DNA from: Octopus vulgaris | Lineage: Eukaryota | Length of the DNA: 64,000 nucleotides | Direction: 5' to 3' | Assembly: GCA_951406725.2 (NCBI GenBank) | Contig: OX597827.1 | Location: forward strand, 10,416,001-10,480,000 | Shown: one piece after another, positions 16,589 through 62,750 of the stretch | Position numbering within the stretch: position 1 is the first letter of the stretch | Layout of the letters: each line of letters begins with the position of its first letter | Position numbers and translations under genes: made by a program | Notes under the pieces: generated by a model | Database searches by the model: none | Seen by the model: only the letters and a program-made list of their open reading frames with translations | Told to the model about the DNA's origin: nothing

Positions 16589-16979
16589 GCAGACTGGGTC
16601 TAAAACTATTGGTTGCCAGGAGATTAAAGGGCCTACCCCCAACTACAAGGAGGCCCACCCACAACTACAATGCTATCATTTATTTATTTATTTGTTAAAA
16701 GTATTCTCAACTGCCTACAAACACAGCCAGGCTGAAATAATTAATGTATTCTTCCAGGAATGAAAATTCTCAAACTTGAGGGGATGGGCCCCTTAGATAC
16801 TAACATGGGTCACCGATATATGGATTCTAATGCCACAGGGGCCCACTTGCCATTAGGCAAGCTGGCAACCTGGCCAGTCCACCACTGTATATATATATAT
16901 ATATATATATGTGAATTCGTGTGTACCGTTGGCAATTTTTTCCTCTGTCTTCCCTTCTCTGGATCTTTCCTTTTCCTAT

Positions 16980-17014
16980 GTTTCTGACGAAGAGCTCCGC
17001 TCGAAACGTTAAAC
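16980..17014 (+). ncRNA. Minimal type I hammerhead ribozyme motif in a ~205-bp (TA)n-flanked element (16911-17116)
   Basis: gttt-CTGACGA-a-gagc-tcc-gctc-GAAA-cg-TT-aaac. Stems I and II pair, and AACGTT is palindromic, as in minimal Penelope-type HHRs. Confidence 0.7.
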
Positions 17015-17110
17015 CCTCCTTCTTTCCTTCTTTCCTGAGCGTCCAATAATACTATATTTGTTCCACGTCCTCGCGTTGTTGTGTTTTTTTGTGCTTTCTT
17101 GTTTGGATTA

Positions 17111-17151
<41 letters not shown>

Positions 17152-18244: not shown

Positions 18245-18440
18245 TCAGCACCATGATAGATCATTAGCCACTACACACATTTTTTCTCTCCTTGTTTTTT
18301 CTGTATCCCCTTCTGTAGAAGAGCGTAGGCTCAAAACCTAAAAGACTTTTTCTATTCCTGAGCATTATACTAATACATCTGTTTGTTTTGTACACCACCT
18401 GTCTTCGTCTTTTGTTTTTTTTTTGTAAACTCTCCCTATA
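18245..18440 (+). mobile_element. (TA)n-anchored short element with a decayed hammerhead-like motif
   Basis: Homologous to 60487-60670 (minus). Motif cctt-CTGTAGA-a-gagc-gtag-gctc-AAAA-cc-TA-aaag at 18309-18344; ends CTCTCCCTATA. Confidence 0.65.
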
Positions 18441-20403: not shown

Positions 20404-21427
20404 ATGCATATACATGTTTGAGTGCGTATTTGCAGATGTATTTGTTTGTATTGATATATTGATATTCATCTTTAATATTCTATGTGCTAACAGACATACA
20501 CATTTGAGAAGAGCAGTTTTATATCCCCCACCACCACGTAAAACGTCTTTACTCCAAGAAATTCAAAATAATTATTTTCTATCTTCTTTAACATTTTTTC
20601 ACAATTTCTTTCTTTCTTCTCTTCCTCTAATTTTAGCAAACATGTTTCAGTTTTTCCTCCTGCTTTTCAGTCCAATGTAGTGTCCTTCTCCGCAGATTTT
20701 TCTGTTGAATTGAATCATCTCAGTTTAAATGGTTCACATCTGGTCAACATCGATTATTTTTACACCCAGCAAGGCAGATTAAATTAGACAGCTGGTCTGA
20801 ACTTTCTACATATCTATCATGTTTCATCAATTTTTCAAATCTTATTGGGTTTTACCTTTTTTCCCAGCCCCACTACTTCAGTGTGTAGCTTTTTAATAGC
20901 ATTATGAATTCAATTTTCTCTAATAGATGTCAAGGTATTTTCCCCAGCTATTCAAGCTTATGTTACTTAAATTAAATAATGCTGATTTGCTTTGTGAATG
21001 CAGTTTTTACTGTTGGCAAGTAGTACCAGTCATCCTTGTATGTTCAAGCAAGATAAAGAAGTTTGAACAATTTGTATCATGTAGCCAAGATATGCTGTCA
21101 TTTATTGTATGTATTCTGTCTTCTGCCATCCAACGTTTTGTCATTGTGAGATGCTGATTGGCTTTCAGAATATGTAGCATTTTGCTTGTAGAATTTGTCT
21201 AACATATCTAGTGAGTCTATGTTGTCACACAGTCTGGTAGGTTGCAACTGTGGTGGGTAGGTAGGTAGGTAGGTAGGTAGTTCTGTTCTGGAGGTAATAA
21301 AACTGACTGTAAAACACAAGAGAAGTCAGCTTTCAAAATACCAGCAAAAGTGTGCTGCAAAGATGACTGCACTTGTATAGAGATGAGTCTGTTTTTTTTT
21401 ATTTTACTTATGTATTTGTTTTATTAT

Positions 21428-52976: not shown

Positions 52977-53275
52977 ATATATATATTCATATATATTTCG
53001 ATAGGTGAATGAATTATCCTATGTTTACCGACAACATGGAAAATTCGATGAACCGATACCAGGGTAGCAAATTCACGCCCAACTCCATTTATCTATTTAT
53101 TCATATATATTCATATATATATATATATATAAATAACTTATAAACACAGGCAAAATAAAAAAATTTCTAATGCCAAATATGCCGAAAACAGACACATCGT
53201 CAATAACCATATAATTCATCACTATAAGCACGCGTCTCGAACAAAGCTGACAGAAATTACTAAAAAATTCCATTA

Positions 53276-53336
53276 TTATCATATCGGACCCGATTTCAGA
53301 GTTAATTCATAAGAACCTTCTCTTCGTCAGTGATAA
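53276..53336 (-). ncRNA. Type I hammerhead ribozyme motif with a canonical core
   Basis: ttatca-CTGACGA-agag-[18 nt]-ctct-GAAA-tcgggtccga-TA-tgataa. All three stems pair. Confidence 0.82.
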
Positions 53337-53650
53337 ATGTGGCAAATAAATAAATGAAATACTTACTTATACCCATGGAAGAAGCAAACACTAAGTCATG
53401 AGCACAATTAAGTACCCCAAATATATCCAAAATAGAAATTCTCCAGCACACCTTGAGGTTGACCTTGCCTTTCAGCCTTTCCGGGTTGATAAAATGAATA
53501 CAGTTGAACACTGGGGTCAATGTAATTGACTTATCTGCCCCTTCCTCAAGCTACCCTTGTGGAAAAAATTTGAAATAATTATCATTAGTATTCTCATTAT
53601 TATTGTTGTTGTTGTTGTTGTTGTTGTTGTTATTATTATTATTATTATTA

Positions 53651-57519: not shown

Positions 57520-59110
57520 CAAGCACAATGATTTGATAATCATCTCTGCATTGTCATCTTTTTCATGAGGTTCAATATTCTGAGGGTGGTCTCCACTACT
57601 CCTGGAGCTCCCTCTTCCAAACATTCCATTTACATTCAATGGTCAGTACTTCTTTATACATCCATACATTTCACATGACCAAACCCACACAATCTTTTCT
57701 TTTGAATTCTGGCCTCCGTTCTGTGGGCACGTAACAAACACCATCCGATCGTGGCCGTGCCAGCCTCGCCTGGCCTCCGTGCCAGTGGCATGTAAAAAAC
57801 ACCATCCGAGCGTGGCCGTTCGCCAGCCTCGTCTGGCACCTGTGTCGGTGGCATATAAAAAGCACCCACTACACTCACGGAGTGGTTGGCGTTAGGAAGG
57901 GCATCCAGCTGTAGAAACACTGCCAGATCTGACTGGCCTGGTGCAGCCTTCGGGCTTCCCAGACCCCAGTTGAACTGTCCAACCCATGCTAGCATGGAGA
58001 ACAGACGTTAAAAGATGATGATGATGATGCCGTTTATTCTCAAATTGTCTCTCAACTAATTTGTACTTTGTTGTGTATGCACACTGATGTTGCACAACCA
58101 ACAAGCATAGTTGTTTAATTTCTTTTCTAGTTCTCACCTGTCCTCTGAATTTACAGCCTATGTTTCACCATCATGAAGCATTGATGTTCATATGCAAGCT
58201 TCATATAATTGGCCTTTCACTTAATGAGAGAGGGCTTGTTACCAACAGAGGTAATATCACTCAGAACTTTCTGTAACTGGTTCTTATTCAAGTAACTATA
58301 GTTTCAGAACATCTGCTTTCACTGCTAATTTGGTTGCCTAGGTAACAGAAACTATCTGCTATCTCTAAGGATCCCCCTAAGCATTTGAGAATAAGTATTT
58401 CCTTCATATGTTCTAAGTTTTACAGCTTCCTATGCATTTGTCACAAATAAGGTCTACTTTCCCTTTTAACCCTTTTTTGATTCCATTGCACCTCTTATGT
58501 AACCCTAATTTGCTTTGGCTGTTCTATACTGAAATTCTACCACCATCTTTTCTACACATTGAACAGGGCTATTTTCATGAAAGGGTTGGCACCCTGTCAG
58601 TTTTTTGCATACTGTAACCTTATCCTTTCCTAATTTAACTTTGATTCCAGGTTTTATTTCTACACCTGGAATTTCTTTTCTAATTCTACTACAGATTCAG
58701 TGACAAGAACAAAGTCATCAGCATAGAAGAGTTCCTACAGACGATCAGTCTTAATCTGCTATGTTATGGCCTGGAGGACTATGATAAATTGGTGGTAACT
58801 GAGAACCAAGTTCTGCTGAACTCCTCAGTGCACACAAAAATCCATTACTTTACTCACAAACTCTTGTATTACTGCCAGTACCCTCCTACATAATTTGAAT
58901 GGCTCTAATCAGCCTTTCATCTACTCCTAGCTACCATAGTGACCACATGATTTGAGAGTAAGGAATGCTGTTGAAAATCTTTTTCCAGACTGACAAATGC
59001 CAAGTTCAATGGTTTACTTTTCAAAAATCTCTCTGCAGGTGCATTACTAGCAAGATAGCATCAGTAATACTTCTGACTAGTACAAAACCAAAGTGCATCT
59101 CAGCTTCAAT
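57520..59110 (-). mobile_element. Old RTE LINE (RT domain to 3' end) interrupted by a family D element (57710-58030)
   Basis: Minus strand reads ELFYADDFVLV at ~58702-58736 and KRLCGFGHVKCMD near 57660-57700. Similar to 7305-7925. Confidence 0.75.
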
Positions 59111-59169
59111 GACTTTCTTCCTGATTAGTTGAGTTATAACTCTTTCTGTAACTTTCACACACACACACG

Positions 59170-59248
<79 letters not shown>

Positions 59249-59470
59249 TCAATATAGGGTGGCAAAAAATTTCGCAGAATTTTTTTGCCACCAGCGGCCT
59301 AGTGGGAAAAAAGTAAATAGTCATAGACCATTTATAAATTCAACAGCAAAATTAAGGAACGGCCATAATAGGCCATTCAACCCACTAGAAATAACAGCCA
59401 AGGCTTCAACCGCAAAACAATATTAATTCCGTAAACCAGGAGAAAATTTAAAAAACATTTACCCTGTAAT

Positions 59471-59573
59471 ACTTTATACGATGCATTGTTTCGTCTATTC
59501 TTTAATGGTAAATCAACCTGATTAAATTAAATCAAGCTAATCTTCCATAGGCCAGTAGATTCATCAGTAAAGT
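59471..59573 (-). ncRNA. Mirror copy of the hammerhead with two stem mismatches
   Basis: CTGATGA-atcta...tagac-GAAA-caatgcatcg-TA, i.e. G10.1>A and one G>A in stem III. Confidence 0.7.
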
Positions 59574-59870
59574 CAGCCAGATCGGGGCAGATATTTTCAC
59601 GAGGCAGTTCCACTACTGTCTCGGCAATATCTGACCTAAAATTTTCAAATCATCGCACTCGCGCCAAATTTATAGGCAGCAAATATAAGCTGCCGATTCC
59701 ATTACAGAATTAAACAGAAAAATTTTCTGTTTAATTCTGTAATGGAATCGGCAGCTTATATTTGCTGCCTATAAATTTGGCGCGAGTGCGATGATTTGAA
59801 AATTTTTGGTCAGATATTGCCGAGACAGTAGTGGAACTGCCTCGTGAAAATATCTGCCCCGATCTGGCTG

Positions 59871-59973
59871 ACTTTACTGATGAGTCTACTGGCCTATGGA
59901 AGATTAGCTTGATTTAATTTAATCAGGTTGATTTACCATTAAAGAATAGACGAAACGATGCATCGTATAAAGT
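59871..59973 (+). ncRNA. Type I hammerhead ribozyme with a canonical core
   Basis: acttta-CTGATGA-gtcta-[hairpin insert]-tagac-GAAA-cgatgcatcg-TA-taaagt. GUA cleavage triplet, predicted cut after 59967. Confidence 0.88.
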
Positions 59974-60096
59974 ATTACAGGGTAAATGTTTTTAAATTTT
60001 CTCCTGGTTTACGGAATTAATATTGTTTTGCGGTTGAAGCCTTGGCTGTTATTTCTAGTGGGTTGAATGGCCTATTATGGCCGTTCCTTAATTTTG

Positions 60097-60138
<42 letters not shown>

Positions 60139-60199
60139 AGAGACGGAGATGTACTTGCATAGCAAGTGATTTGATCTGAGATCGTGTGCTGAAACGAAA

Positions 60200-60487
60200 A
60201 CAATTGCAGCATGGAAGGTGTTTGTAAGCCATTTAAGAAACACACAAAAGCCGTTCGATTCACTTCAACATTTAAGTTTAATTTGTCAAAATATTTTCGT
60301 CGCTTTAAGATCGCGACCTGTTCACTGACAAAAATCTGTGCTGCATCTTGGATTTTTGTCAGTGAACCGGTCACGGTCTTAAAGCGACGAAAATATTTTG
60401 ACAAATTAAACTTAAATGTTGAAGTGAATCGAACGGCTTTTGTGTGTTACTTAAATGGCTTACAAACACCTTCCATGCTGCAATTGT
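60200..60487. repeat. Palindrome with 137-bp arms and a 14-bp spacer
   Basis: Arms 60200-60336 and 60351-60487, with few mismatches. Confidence 0.95.
60282..60332 (-). ncRNA. Hammerhead variant with a G3-C8 swapped core
   Basis: tttgtca-GTGAACA-g-gtcgc-gatcttaaa-gcgac-GAAA-atat-TT-tgacaaa. The mirror copy at 60355-60405 (+) is mutated. Confidence 0.65.
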
Positions 60488-60670
60488 ATAGGGAGAGATT
60501 TCACACAAAAAAAAAGACGAAGAAAGGTGGTGTAGACAACAAAAAGATGTATTAGTTTAATGGTTGAGAAGTGAAAAAGTCTTTAAAGTTTTGAGCCTAT
60601 GCTCTTCCACAGAAAGAAACAAGGAGAGAAAATAAAGAATGTGTAGTGGCTAGCGATTTATCATGGCGAA
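60487..60670 (-). mobile_element. (TA)n-anchored element of the 18245-18440 family, with a decayed HHR-like motif at 60581-60616
   Basis: cttt-CTGTGGA-a-gagc-atag-gctc-AAAA-ct-TT-aaag; ends CTCTCCCTATA. Confidence 0.65.
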
Positions 60671-60994
60671 TATATATATATATATATATATAAATTAAGA
60701 AAAAGAGTCAAACACAGGTGTTATTCAAATCATTTATACTTCCAGCATATGTTTCAAAGAAAGTATTGAAATAATTCTGGAGGGAATAAAAATGATGTAA
60801 AACAATGCAATCATCTCATCAGGGAAAAAAATAGAAACAAAACACATCAATAAGCCATTTTAACTGAATGTTATTACCATGTATATGATGAAGGAGAAAG
60901 CTGGAAAGTTATTTTTTAAAAAGCTGTTAATAAATTTAACGTCGAAGGTAATTTAGAGAAAGAGAACAAGGCGAAAGACAGAAAATATATATAT

Positions 60995-61397
60995 ACTCTT
61001 TTACTTGTTTCAGTCATCTGACCGCGGCCATGCTGGAGCACCGCCTTTAATCGAGCAACTCGACCCCAGGACTTATTCTTTTTGTAAGCCCAGTACTTAT
61101 TCTATCGGTCTCTTTTGCCAAACCGCTAAGTAACGGGGACATAAACACACCAGCATCGGTTGTCAAGCAATGCTAGGAGGACAAACACAGACACACAAAC
61201 ACACACACGCATATATATATATATACATATATACGATGGGCTTCTTTCAGTTTCCGTCTACCAAATCCACTCACAAGGCTTTGGTCGGCCCGAGGCTATA
61301 GTAGATGACACTTGCCCAAGGTGCCACGCAGTGGGACTGAACCCGGAACCATGTGGTTGGTAAACAAGCTACTTACCACACAGCCACTCCTGCACCT
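60995..61397 (-). mobile_element. SINE family A
   Basis: Reverse complement of family A. Confidence 0.9.
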
Positions 61398-61402
61398 ATA
61401 TA

Positions 61403-61580
61403 TATCATCATCATTTAACGTCCACTTTCCACACTGGCATGGGTTAGTTAGACTTGAACTGGTAAGCAGGAGGGCTGCACCAGGTTCCAGTCTGATTTGG
61501 CATGATTTCTGTGGCTGGATGCCCTTCCTAATGCCAACCACTCCACAGAGTGTAGTGGGTGCTTTTTATGTGCCACCAGT
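61403..61580 (-). mobile_element. Family D retroposon (diverged)
   Basis: GGATGCCCTTCCTAATGCCAACC block and a (CAT)n tail. Confidence 0.75.
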
Positions 61581-61958
61581 ATGGGTTCCATTTACATGAC
61601 ACCAGCAACTGCCACGACTACGATTTCATGGGTGCAGTTGACATGAGACACTGGCCACAATCATGACTACAAAGTCTCTTGGTTTGATGAGTTTCCTCAA
61701 GCACCAAAGATCTTGGTCACATGTCATCACCTCTGGGAAGCTCAACATTCAAAGGTCATGACACTGGTAGTGGCCACGATTATGATTTCACGAATGCTAT
61801 TCACATGACACTGGCAATGGTTATGACCATGATTTTATTTGGCTTGACGAGTCTTTTCAAGCACAGCATATTGCCAAAGGTCTTGGCCATTTGTCATCCC
61901 CTTCGTCAGGCCCAACATTCAAAGATCATGCTTCACCACCTCGTCACACACATACTTA

Positions 61959-62750
61959 TACATATGAAGGGACAAAAATAAATTTCTGAGAATTAGACAG
62001 AAGAATCACTTGAAACCTCACCCTTGTATTGTCTTCTTTATTTATTTTGGTGATGTATAACAATTTACATTTGTATCTAATAAGGTCTAATACATATGAA
62101 GGGACAAAAATAAATTTCTGAGAATTAGACAGAAGAATCACTTGAAACCTCACCCTTGTATTGTCTTCTTTATTTATTTTGGTGATGTAAAACAATTTAC
62201 ATTTGTATCTAATAAGGTCTAATACATATGAAGGGACAAAAATAAATTTCTGAGAATTAGACAGAAGAATCACTTGAAACCTCACCCTTGTATTGTCTTC
62301 TTTATTTATTTTGGTGATGTATAACAATTTACATTTGTATCTAATAAGGTCTAATACATATGAAGGGACAAAAATAAATTTCTGAGAATTAGACAGAAGA
62401 ATCACTTGAAACCTCACCCTTGTATTGTCTTCTTTATTTATTTTGGTGATGTAAAACAATTTACATTTGTATCTAATAAGGTCTAATACATATGAAGGGA
62501 CAAAAATAAATTTCTGAGAATTAGACAGAAGAATCACTTGAAACCTCACCCTTGTATTGTCTTCTTTATTTATTTTGGTGATGTATAACAATTTACATTT
62601 GTATCTAATAAGGTCTAATACATATGAAGGGACAAAAATAAATTTCTGAGAATTAGACAGAAGAATCACTTGAAACCTCACCCTTGTATTGTCTTCTTTA
62701 TTTATTTTGGTGATGTAAAACAATTTACATTTGTATCTAATAAGGTCTAA
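61959..62750. repeat. Tandem array, 6 x 132 bp
   Basis: Units start at 61959, 62091, 62223, 62355, 62487 and 62619. They are identical except for one alternating T/A site. Confidence 0.97.

Follow-up and report, generated by a model that had tools for sequence, protein, structure and literature searches.

A single (TA)n site on Octopus vulgaris contig OX597827.1 harbors four different repeats, designated U1 to U4, each with a hammerhead ribozyme motif in an intact or decayed state. The window is the whole 64,000-nt stretch of DNA analyzed; coordinates are positions within it and refer to the plus strand unless stated otherwise. Read on the minus strand, the order is short interspersed element (SINE)-like repeat B, SINE-like repeat A, (TA)5, U4, (TA)11, U3, TATA, U2, (TA)19, U1, and (TA)35 (Table 1). 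The (TA)35 tract is likely both the target and the primer for U1.

The stack of four unrelated hammerhead-bearing repeats in one TA repeat is real. Its layout, first proposed in a preliminary description of this DNA, is confirmed with coordinates, and BLAST finds no cross-matches among the bodies of U1–U4. The common terminus ascribed to two units, CTCTCCCTATA, occurs three times in the window versus 0.02 expected (0 of 100 shuffles reach three), and all three copies sit at 3′ ends, namely those of U2, U3, and a solo element at 18245. The three solo elements listed in Table 1 do end 3′ in (TA)n, as had been claimed.

Table 1. Features of the stack and solo hammerhead elements of the window
Feature	Position	Strand	Remarks
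(TA)35 tract	59173..59243		3′ end of U1
U1 one-sided 3′ tail	59244..59345	-	~102 nt, 105 if three TA-like bases are counted in; 36-nt hairpin, then CCCTATA
U1 direct arm	59346..59721	-	hammerhead core at 59567, decayed
U1 palindrome centre (AATT)	59721..59724		also putative monomer head; tail-end joint here in run X7
U1 inverted arm	59723..60097	+	intact type I hammerhead
(TA)19	60098..60135		separates U1 from U2
U2 one-sided 3′ tail	60136..60200	-	65 nt, terminus CTCTCCC(TATA)
U2 direct arm and 14-nt head	60201..60350	-	arm 60201-60336
U2 minimal type I hammerhead, swapped G3:C8 core	60282..60332	-	from descriptor scan
U2 inverted arm	60351..60486	+	same G3:C8 core; A9>C and stem II change
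TATA	60487..60490		between U2 and U3; U3 3′ end or leftover target
U3, one copy	60491..60669	-	decayed minimal hammerhead, core at 60612; terminus CTCTCCC(TATA)
(TA)11	60670..60691		separates U3 from U4
U4, one copy	60692..60984	-	hammerhead-like, core at 60822
SINE-like repeat A	60994..61400	-	adjoins U4 via (TA)5, same polarity; 16 copies/fragments in window
SINE-like repeat B	61404..61640	-	adjoins repeat A, same polarity; 10 copies/fragments in window; 5′ end approximate
Solo element, intact canonical minimal hammerhead	16911..17115	+	core 16984; (TA)n on both sides
U3-family second copy	18246..18440	+	A6>U, G12>A; then (TA)12; no adjoining U2
Solo element with hammerhead	53132..53360	-	core 53330; 10-nt near-palindromic stem III; 3′ end in (TA)n; 5′ end undefined

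Independent families and palindromic units

Contigs of 4 public runs (of 24 listed), from four organisms, were aligned on 58500-61200, an interval that included 200 nt of SINE-like repeat, which dominated the result tables. The results given here concern the listed 40 of 201 variants, 15 of 709 joints, 12 of 567 joint inserts, 24 of 4386 loose ends, and 32 of 516381 pieces. Each of U1–U4 is a separate multi-copy family in 4/4 runs. Relative to the unique left flank, summed contig depth (a ratio that is not a copy number) is 6 × 10^3 to 5 × 10^4 for U1, 5 × 10^4 to 1.5 × 10^5 for U2, 1 × 10^4 to 3 × 10^4 for U3, and 70 to 260 for U4. These depth steps between neighbours exclude one composite repeat, an outcome that the preliminary description named as refuting its reading. 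U2 and U3 are also seen with other flanks (U2 in contig records 12, 19, and 29; U3 at 18251-18440).

The U4–repeat A junction is bridged at single-copy depth in organism B (record 16; 43.9 vs 44.2 in run X3) and is thus likely shared by descent. Repeats A and B, which had been overlooked and which extend the stack, are presumably SINEs of tRNA origin; ARAGORN found no tRNA genes in the window. At 60920-60922, four of the listed contigs, from three runs, depart from U4 and continue in different sequence, and 60922-60984 is itself multi-copy; U4 may be composed of two pieces, or its 5′ part may vary. A sequence at 21286 that weakly matches U4 was rejected as a further copy; it contains no hammerhead. 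Contig depth is also raised over 58590-58860 in the left flank, pointing to another repeat fragment; a frame at 58684-58890 has no Pfam match.

U1 and U2 share a plan that is absent from U3 and U4: an inverted arm lies head-to-head with a direct arm, which is followed by the tail. The inverted repeats are asymmetric, with the unpaired tail at only one end. The U1 arms are 98.8% identical by BLAST (3 substitutions and 1 indel), and the U2 arms, 136 nt each with a 14-nt spacer, differ by 4 substitutions. Arm divergence (4/376 for U1 vs 4/136 for U2) does not differ significantly (Fisher p = 0.22) and yields no relative age. Inside (TA)n, a target duplication is unreadable.

Several boundaries recur. 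Record 29 begins at 60200, the end point of the U2 inverted arm, after 194 foreign letters, and record 11 stops at 59347, the corresponding end point in U1. That the palindromes are assembly or library fold-back artefacts is scarcely credible, even though neither the U1 centre nor the entire stretch is spanned by any listed contig, because the arms differ at 4 places each and end in TA at recurrent points, and because a contig from another organism (record 19) runs across the centre of a U2 palindrome with a different flank.

Hammerhead motifs and the swapped core of U2

Hammerheads were sought with two descriptors. The first required CUGANGA without an extra base and missed both U2 and the motif at 16984. 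The second described type I hammerheads with any Watson-Crick 3:8 pair; it was written and scored after the motifs had been seen, which makes its null generous. It returned 62 matches in the window, of which five score at least 13 versus a null mean of 0.03 (200 block shuffles): 59877 (19), 60325 (16), 16984 (13), 53330 (13), and 38456, the last a microsatellite and rejected as a false match. Rfam's own hammerhead family appears in 0 of 45 matches and in none of the 150 of 338 matches listed in another scan; the Rfam matches obtained, to hairpins and microsatellite look-alikes, lie below gathering scores and were rejected.

U1 carries its intact type I hammerhead on the plus arm, with a score of 19 that is unmatched in shuffles (0/200 reach 15). 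The core occupies 59877-59883, stem I has 6 bp, stem II has 5 bp and a long loop, stem III is a 10-nt palindrome, and the predicted cut falls after 59967. In the minus arm, the core at 59567 is decayed (G10.1>A and a stem III change). The preliminary description placed a hammerhead or hammerhead-like motif on the minus strand of all four units; each unit does contain one, yet U1 and U2 carry it on both strands, and the intact U1 copy is the plus one.

U3 and U4 are decayed. Both window copies of the U3 family have A6>U and G12>A, and loop III is changed in U3; U4 has U16.1>C and a poorly paired stem II. For the U4 position (60745, G>A), 86-95% of contig depth carries U at 16.1 as the family majority, which supports the earlier reading of U4 as a decayed motif. 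In a test for minimal type I hammerheads, the U1 plus arm and the U2 minus arm thus pass, and the U3 and U4 copies are classed as decayed. Judged by sequence, the minimal type I hammerheads with an extra base and palindromic helix III match the consensus of Penelope-like elements (PLEs).

The U3 family has a second copy on the opposite strand (18251-18440, 79% identical by BLAST), and both copies begin at about the same 5′ point. By its sequence, the 16911 element seems distantly related to U3. Its motif at 16984 keeps the canonical core, and the U3 copies (cores 60612 and 18313) have U at position 6 and A at 12. The abundant U3 family may have spread despite a weak or inactive ribozyme, and it offers a natural contrast to U2.

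U2 has a hammerhead on its minus strand that scores 16, a value reached by 0/200 shuffles. Its core, GUGAACA at 60325-60319 (G3 U G A A C8 A), has C3 and G8 exchanged, a feature that the preliminary description did not register. Next to the core come an extra G and a 5-bp stem II whose first pair is G10.1-C11.1; GAAA, the palindrome AUAU, UU, and a 7-bp stem I complete the motif in that order. The predicted cut lies after 60289, with a triplet that ends in UU. Once any Watson-Crick 3:8 pair is allowed, there are 0 mismatches: three helices and G5, A6, A9, G12, A13, A14, A15.1-U16.1, and H17 surround the core. The canonical C3:G8 pair is absent from U2, and G3:C8 is present in both arms.

Contig variants suggest indirectly that G3:C8 is the state of the U2 family. 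Positions 3 and 8 are not among the listed 40 of 201 variant rows, in which other departures of the window copy do appear: at the mirror position 60368, 95-99% of contig depth has A, restoring A9, and at 60311, 97-99% differs from the window copy. This compensated swap suggests selection on the ribozyme fold, and it is predicted to leave weak cutting activity. The majority of motif copies at this locus have decayed.

In the literature, for which coverage was partial and each cited paper is represented by the parts of its text at hand, natural G3:C8 cores were not found, only engineered swaps. A C3G/G8C double swap partly restores hammerhead cleavage (PMC11167929, PMC8495972), the natural 3:8 swap reported is U3-A8 (PMC4209133, PMC3088659), and 0 of 56 rows in Fig. 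S3 of PMC4209133 start with G3. An A6C hammerhead has low activity (PMC3088659). A natural G3:C8 family would also mean that counts based on CUGANGA miss whole families.

Probable insertion by Penelope-like enzymes and a putative U1 monomer

U1–U4 are four separate families, probably inserted serially into one (TA)n tract by a PLE reverse transcriptase (RT)-endonuclease encoded elsewhere. PLE insertions carry an inverted 5′-truncated copy and a 30-40 bp tail and prefer (TA)n (PMC8557442); head-to-head palindromes with a tail have been described (PMC3846280); and both strands of an AT-rich target are nicked and extended, the tail being the stretch between two RT starts (PMC11167929). Applied to the stack, a PLE GIY-YIG endonuclease would nick the TA tract, and the nicked end would pair with the element RNA at its UAUA or UUAU terminus and prime the cDNA that becomes direct arm and tail. 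In U1 and U2, the inverted arm would be copied from the same template starting at a fixed internal site, ~102 or 65 nt from the 3′ end, respectively; this internal start would leave the one-sided tail, and the arms would join at the head. Two origins of the inverted arm fit: the second nicked strand could act as the primer, or fold-back could occur at the head. Each insertion would leave (TA)n at its 3′ end as the next target. In the source elements, hammerhead dimers would likely serve to process multimeric RNA.

The U1 insert, akin to a retrozyme, is probably one complete monomer (~484 nt) of an RNA that is tandem or circular, and it does not look like a random truncation. Six contigs of run X7 have the end of the U1 tail directly before 59721 (agreement 0.99), and 28 of 30 junction letters match the U1 tail by eye, which places a U1 head-to-tail joint exactly at the palindrome centre. 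With this joint, the direct copy (59724-59241, 484 nt) would correspond to a single complete circuit of a unit that is tandem or circular. At all 9 positions checked where this copy departs from the family majority, both arms have the same letter, and none of the 14 listed variant positions in the U1 arms coincides with an arm difference; the shared copy-specific letters indicate that one template made both arms. No tandem array with hammerhead units was found in the window, the X7 joint being the one head-to-tail joint of U1 among the loose ends listed. A 132-bp unit at 61958-62750 forms six tandem copies that are 99% alike and is not among the top hammerhead-descriptor matches.

The X7 joint also bears on a doubtful account that shares enzyme and insertion mechanism with serial insertion of separate families: all four units would be 5′-truncated ends of autonomous PLEs (pseudo-long terminal repeats), with no separate small RNA and with fold-back where the RT stopped. 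Minimal hammerheads are mostly single and probably mark truncated PLEs, some forming opposite-strand pairs 100-700 bp apart (PMC4209133). The short single copies of U3 and U4 and the contigs that leave U4 at 60920-60922 suit this account, which may hold for these two units; they could be cut-down ends of autonomous PLEs. It fits poorly with a U1 joint exactly at the palindrome centre, with breaks close to that head position in other U2 copies (joints 60332 and 60335, record 19), and with the common 5′ start of the two U3 copies.

Foldback or miniature inverted-repeat (MITE-like) DNA transposons at TA, or a Helitron-like origin of U1, with hammerheads as passengers or chance matches, would account for long inverted repeats flanked by TA and for the GC-rich hairpin near the U1 3′ end. 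Both are very improbable. The repeats are asymmetric with a one-sided tail and lack the two matching ends of terminal inverted repeats, both arms derive from one template, the intact hammerheads outscore 200 shuffles, and U3 has the terminus of U2 without an inverted repeat. Helitrons end 3′ in CTRR, and U1 does not.

Several small features accompany the tails and heads. The 36-nt hairpin of the U1 tail (59258-59294) lies right before CCCTATA, a motif common to the U2 and U3 ends; a second, TTAA-Y-TATA-like type of terminus occurs in U1, U4, and the 16911 element. The U1 head (59721-59737) resembles the tail boundary (59337-59353) as a direct repeat, a by-eye likeness in AT-rich sequence that may be chance. 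The 14-nt U2 head (60337-60350) is partly complementary to the tail boundary at 60201-60212, with TGCTGCA common to both; given this complementarity, the head of the U2 RNA could pair with the internal RT start. Run X3 contains a joint from 60335 to 60212 with ATAT between (depth 1587), which may represent tandem U2. An ATG-started minus-strand frame of ~33 codons at 60132-60231 reaches the U2 3′ end and resembles the start of a PLE open reading frame (ORF); it was seen by eye and is likely chance. In record 19 (60286-60437), a single-copy contig, the inverted arm ends ~3 nt past the mirror of the predicted cut at 60289, which may reflect priming at a cleaved RNA end or chance.

A number of results weigh against insertion by PLE enzymes as set out above. 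(i) The U3 and U4 motifs are not above noise in either descriptor scan, and U3 lacks A6 in both window copies. (ii) In RNA models, the dimer helix III of U2 is predicted to be very weak (-0.2 kcal/mol), and a whole-palindrome transcript would bury the ribozyme in one long hairpin. (iii) The tails measure 65 and ~102 nt versus the published 30-40 bp. (iv) In record 19 (run X6), the U2 palindrome has an inverted arm of only ~50 nt and a shorter spacer, so that the inverted-arm end is not always fixed. (v) The U1 head-to-tail joint comes from one run and was among the listed 24 of 4386 loose ends. (vi) Contigs listed from the 4 runs include no U1–U2, U2–U3, or U3–U4 bridge and no empty site. (vii) Among 208 filtered stop-to-stop frames, Pfam searches of the longest 145 detected no RT or GIY-YIG remnant (2 of the 145 frames have matches, both below cut-off), which makes the units at most non-coding derivatives of PLEs. 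(viii) No autonomous partner was found in the window or in scans of metagenome, genome-contig, and viral-contig collections. The metagenome scan for copies gave 1 match, to a bacterial contig; genome-contig scans gave 28 matches to an 18-mer, all prokaryote-titled and taken as chance by title, and further scans gave 0 and 0, as did the viral-contig scans.

A more specific proposal, that the abundant U2 family spread with a working swapped ribozyme that escapes standard searches and that U1-like monomers are copied exactly once around by PLE enzymes and integrated with the inverted arm and tail typical of PLEs, with (TA)n tracts as landing pads, is offered tentatively and at somewhat less than even confidence.

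TA tracts, polarity, and known relatives

Hammerheads are enriched near (TA)n within the window; the preliminary description had suggested this check for the genome. Six of 7 hammerhead cut sites lie at most 240 nt 5′ of a (TA)5+ run, a cut-off set after seeing the data, versus a background of 0.20 in this one window; the seventh belongs to U3, which ends in TATA because U2 follows it. With the stack counted once, the proportion is 4/4 loci (P ~0.002).

The preliminary description also treated the shared polarity of the units as a signal. The common polarity is likely chance: the same-strand probability is p = 0.125 for the four units, and the solo hammerhead elements are split 2 plus to 1 minus, with the SINE-like repeats evenly divided by strand. 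A mechanistic polarity, with new elements directed in fixed orientation to the 3′ ends of earlier ones or with the stack moving as read-through composites, is unlikely. It would explain six abutting elements on one strand (p = 0.031 with the two SINE-like neighbours) and the position of U2, 4 nt from a U3 3′ end with the same CTCTCCCTATA, and PLEs are reported to land inside or beside older PLE copies (PMC6765202) and to nick their own pLTR (PMC11167929). The pattern is nevertheless a post hoc one from a single locus, and shuffling the 33 annotated elements yields a same-strand run of at least six 31% of the time. Two other abutting pairs in the window are opposite-strand (one of them perhaps one element split by mistake), (TA)n is itself symmetric, neighbour depth differs >100-fold, and the U4–SINE junction is single-copy in run X3.

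The suggestion that such elements help generate the TA tracts of the genome was not established. Elements abut 8 of 96 (TA)5+ runs (234 of 2270 bp) and cannot account for most TA tracts here; the case is weak, with cause inseparable from target. The description of a diverse group of ribozyme retroelements in (TA)n stands as to their diversity, independence, lack of protein, 3′ (TA)n, and stacking; that they are non-autonomous is the part that we infer.

The stack itself is expected PLE behaviour and largely published, and known PLE biology most probably explains the bulk of it. EN+ PLEs (Penelope/Poseidon, Neptune; PMC8557442, PMC3846280, PMC11167929) share with U1 and U2 the head-to-head inverted copy and one-sided tail, and with the stack a repeat-borne hammerhead, targets that are AT-rich or consist of (TA)n, and clustering by older copies. 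The stack differs in having no ORF, in the length of its tails, and in gathering four families in one tract. For Octopus vulgaris, PMC13282606 lists 31 PLE families with recent activity; the terms hammerhead and ribozyme are absent from the text at hand.

The minimal type I PLE hammerheads of Cervera and de la Pena 2014 (PMC4209133) resemble 16984, U1, and 53330 in their CUGANGA-type core, extra base before stem II, G10.1-C11.1, U-rich flanks, and short palindromic helix III suited to dimers. They are unlike U2, with its G3:C8, and U3, with A6>U in both window copies.

Animal non-LTR retrozymes (PMC7229834; bioRxiv 10.64898/2026.07.22.740005), the latter source treating retrozymes as PLE derivatives, are similarly short and protein-free, with a type I hammerhead. 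They further share with U1 a head-to-tail junction and a proposed PLE origin. The octopus units lie scattered in (TA)n as single or palindromic inserts and do not form tandem arrays here; U1 measures ~484 nt versus 220-390 nt for the retrozyme monomers described in the text at hand; and the word "inverted" is absent from PMC7229834. Chlamys elements such as MRC1 (PMC8557442) are likewise non-autonomous PLE derivatives with head-to-tail insertions and a microsatellite bias. Unlike the units, they come from green algae, target (CA)n or (C)n, and mostly have no canonical hammerhead.

What is new here is a likely family-wide G3:C8 hammerhead and a putative unit-length, retrozyme-like insert with PLE anatomy. 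For PLE-type elements, ribozyme cleavage was dispensable for insertion in vitro (PMC11167929). If true, the natural occurrence of a G3:C8 core in an animal family of high copy number would amount to a compensatory double change and show selection on the PLE-type ribozyme fold. Likewise, the insertion-site anatomy of U1, if it is a unit-length monomer, would link retrozymes to PLE proteins, a connection for which the preprint gives co-occurrence and phylogeny.

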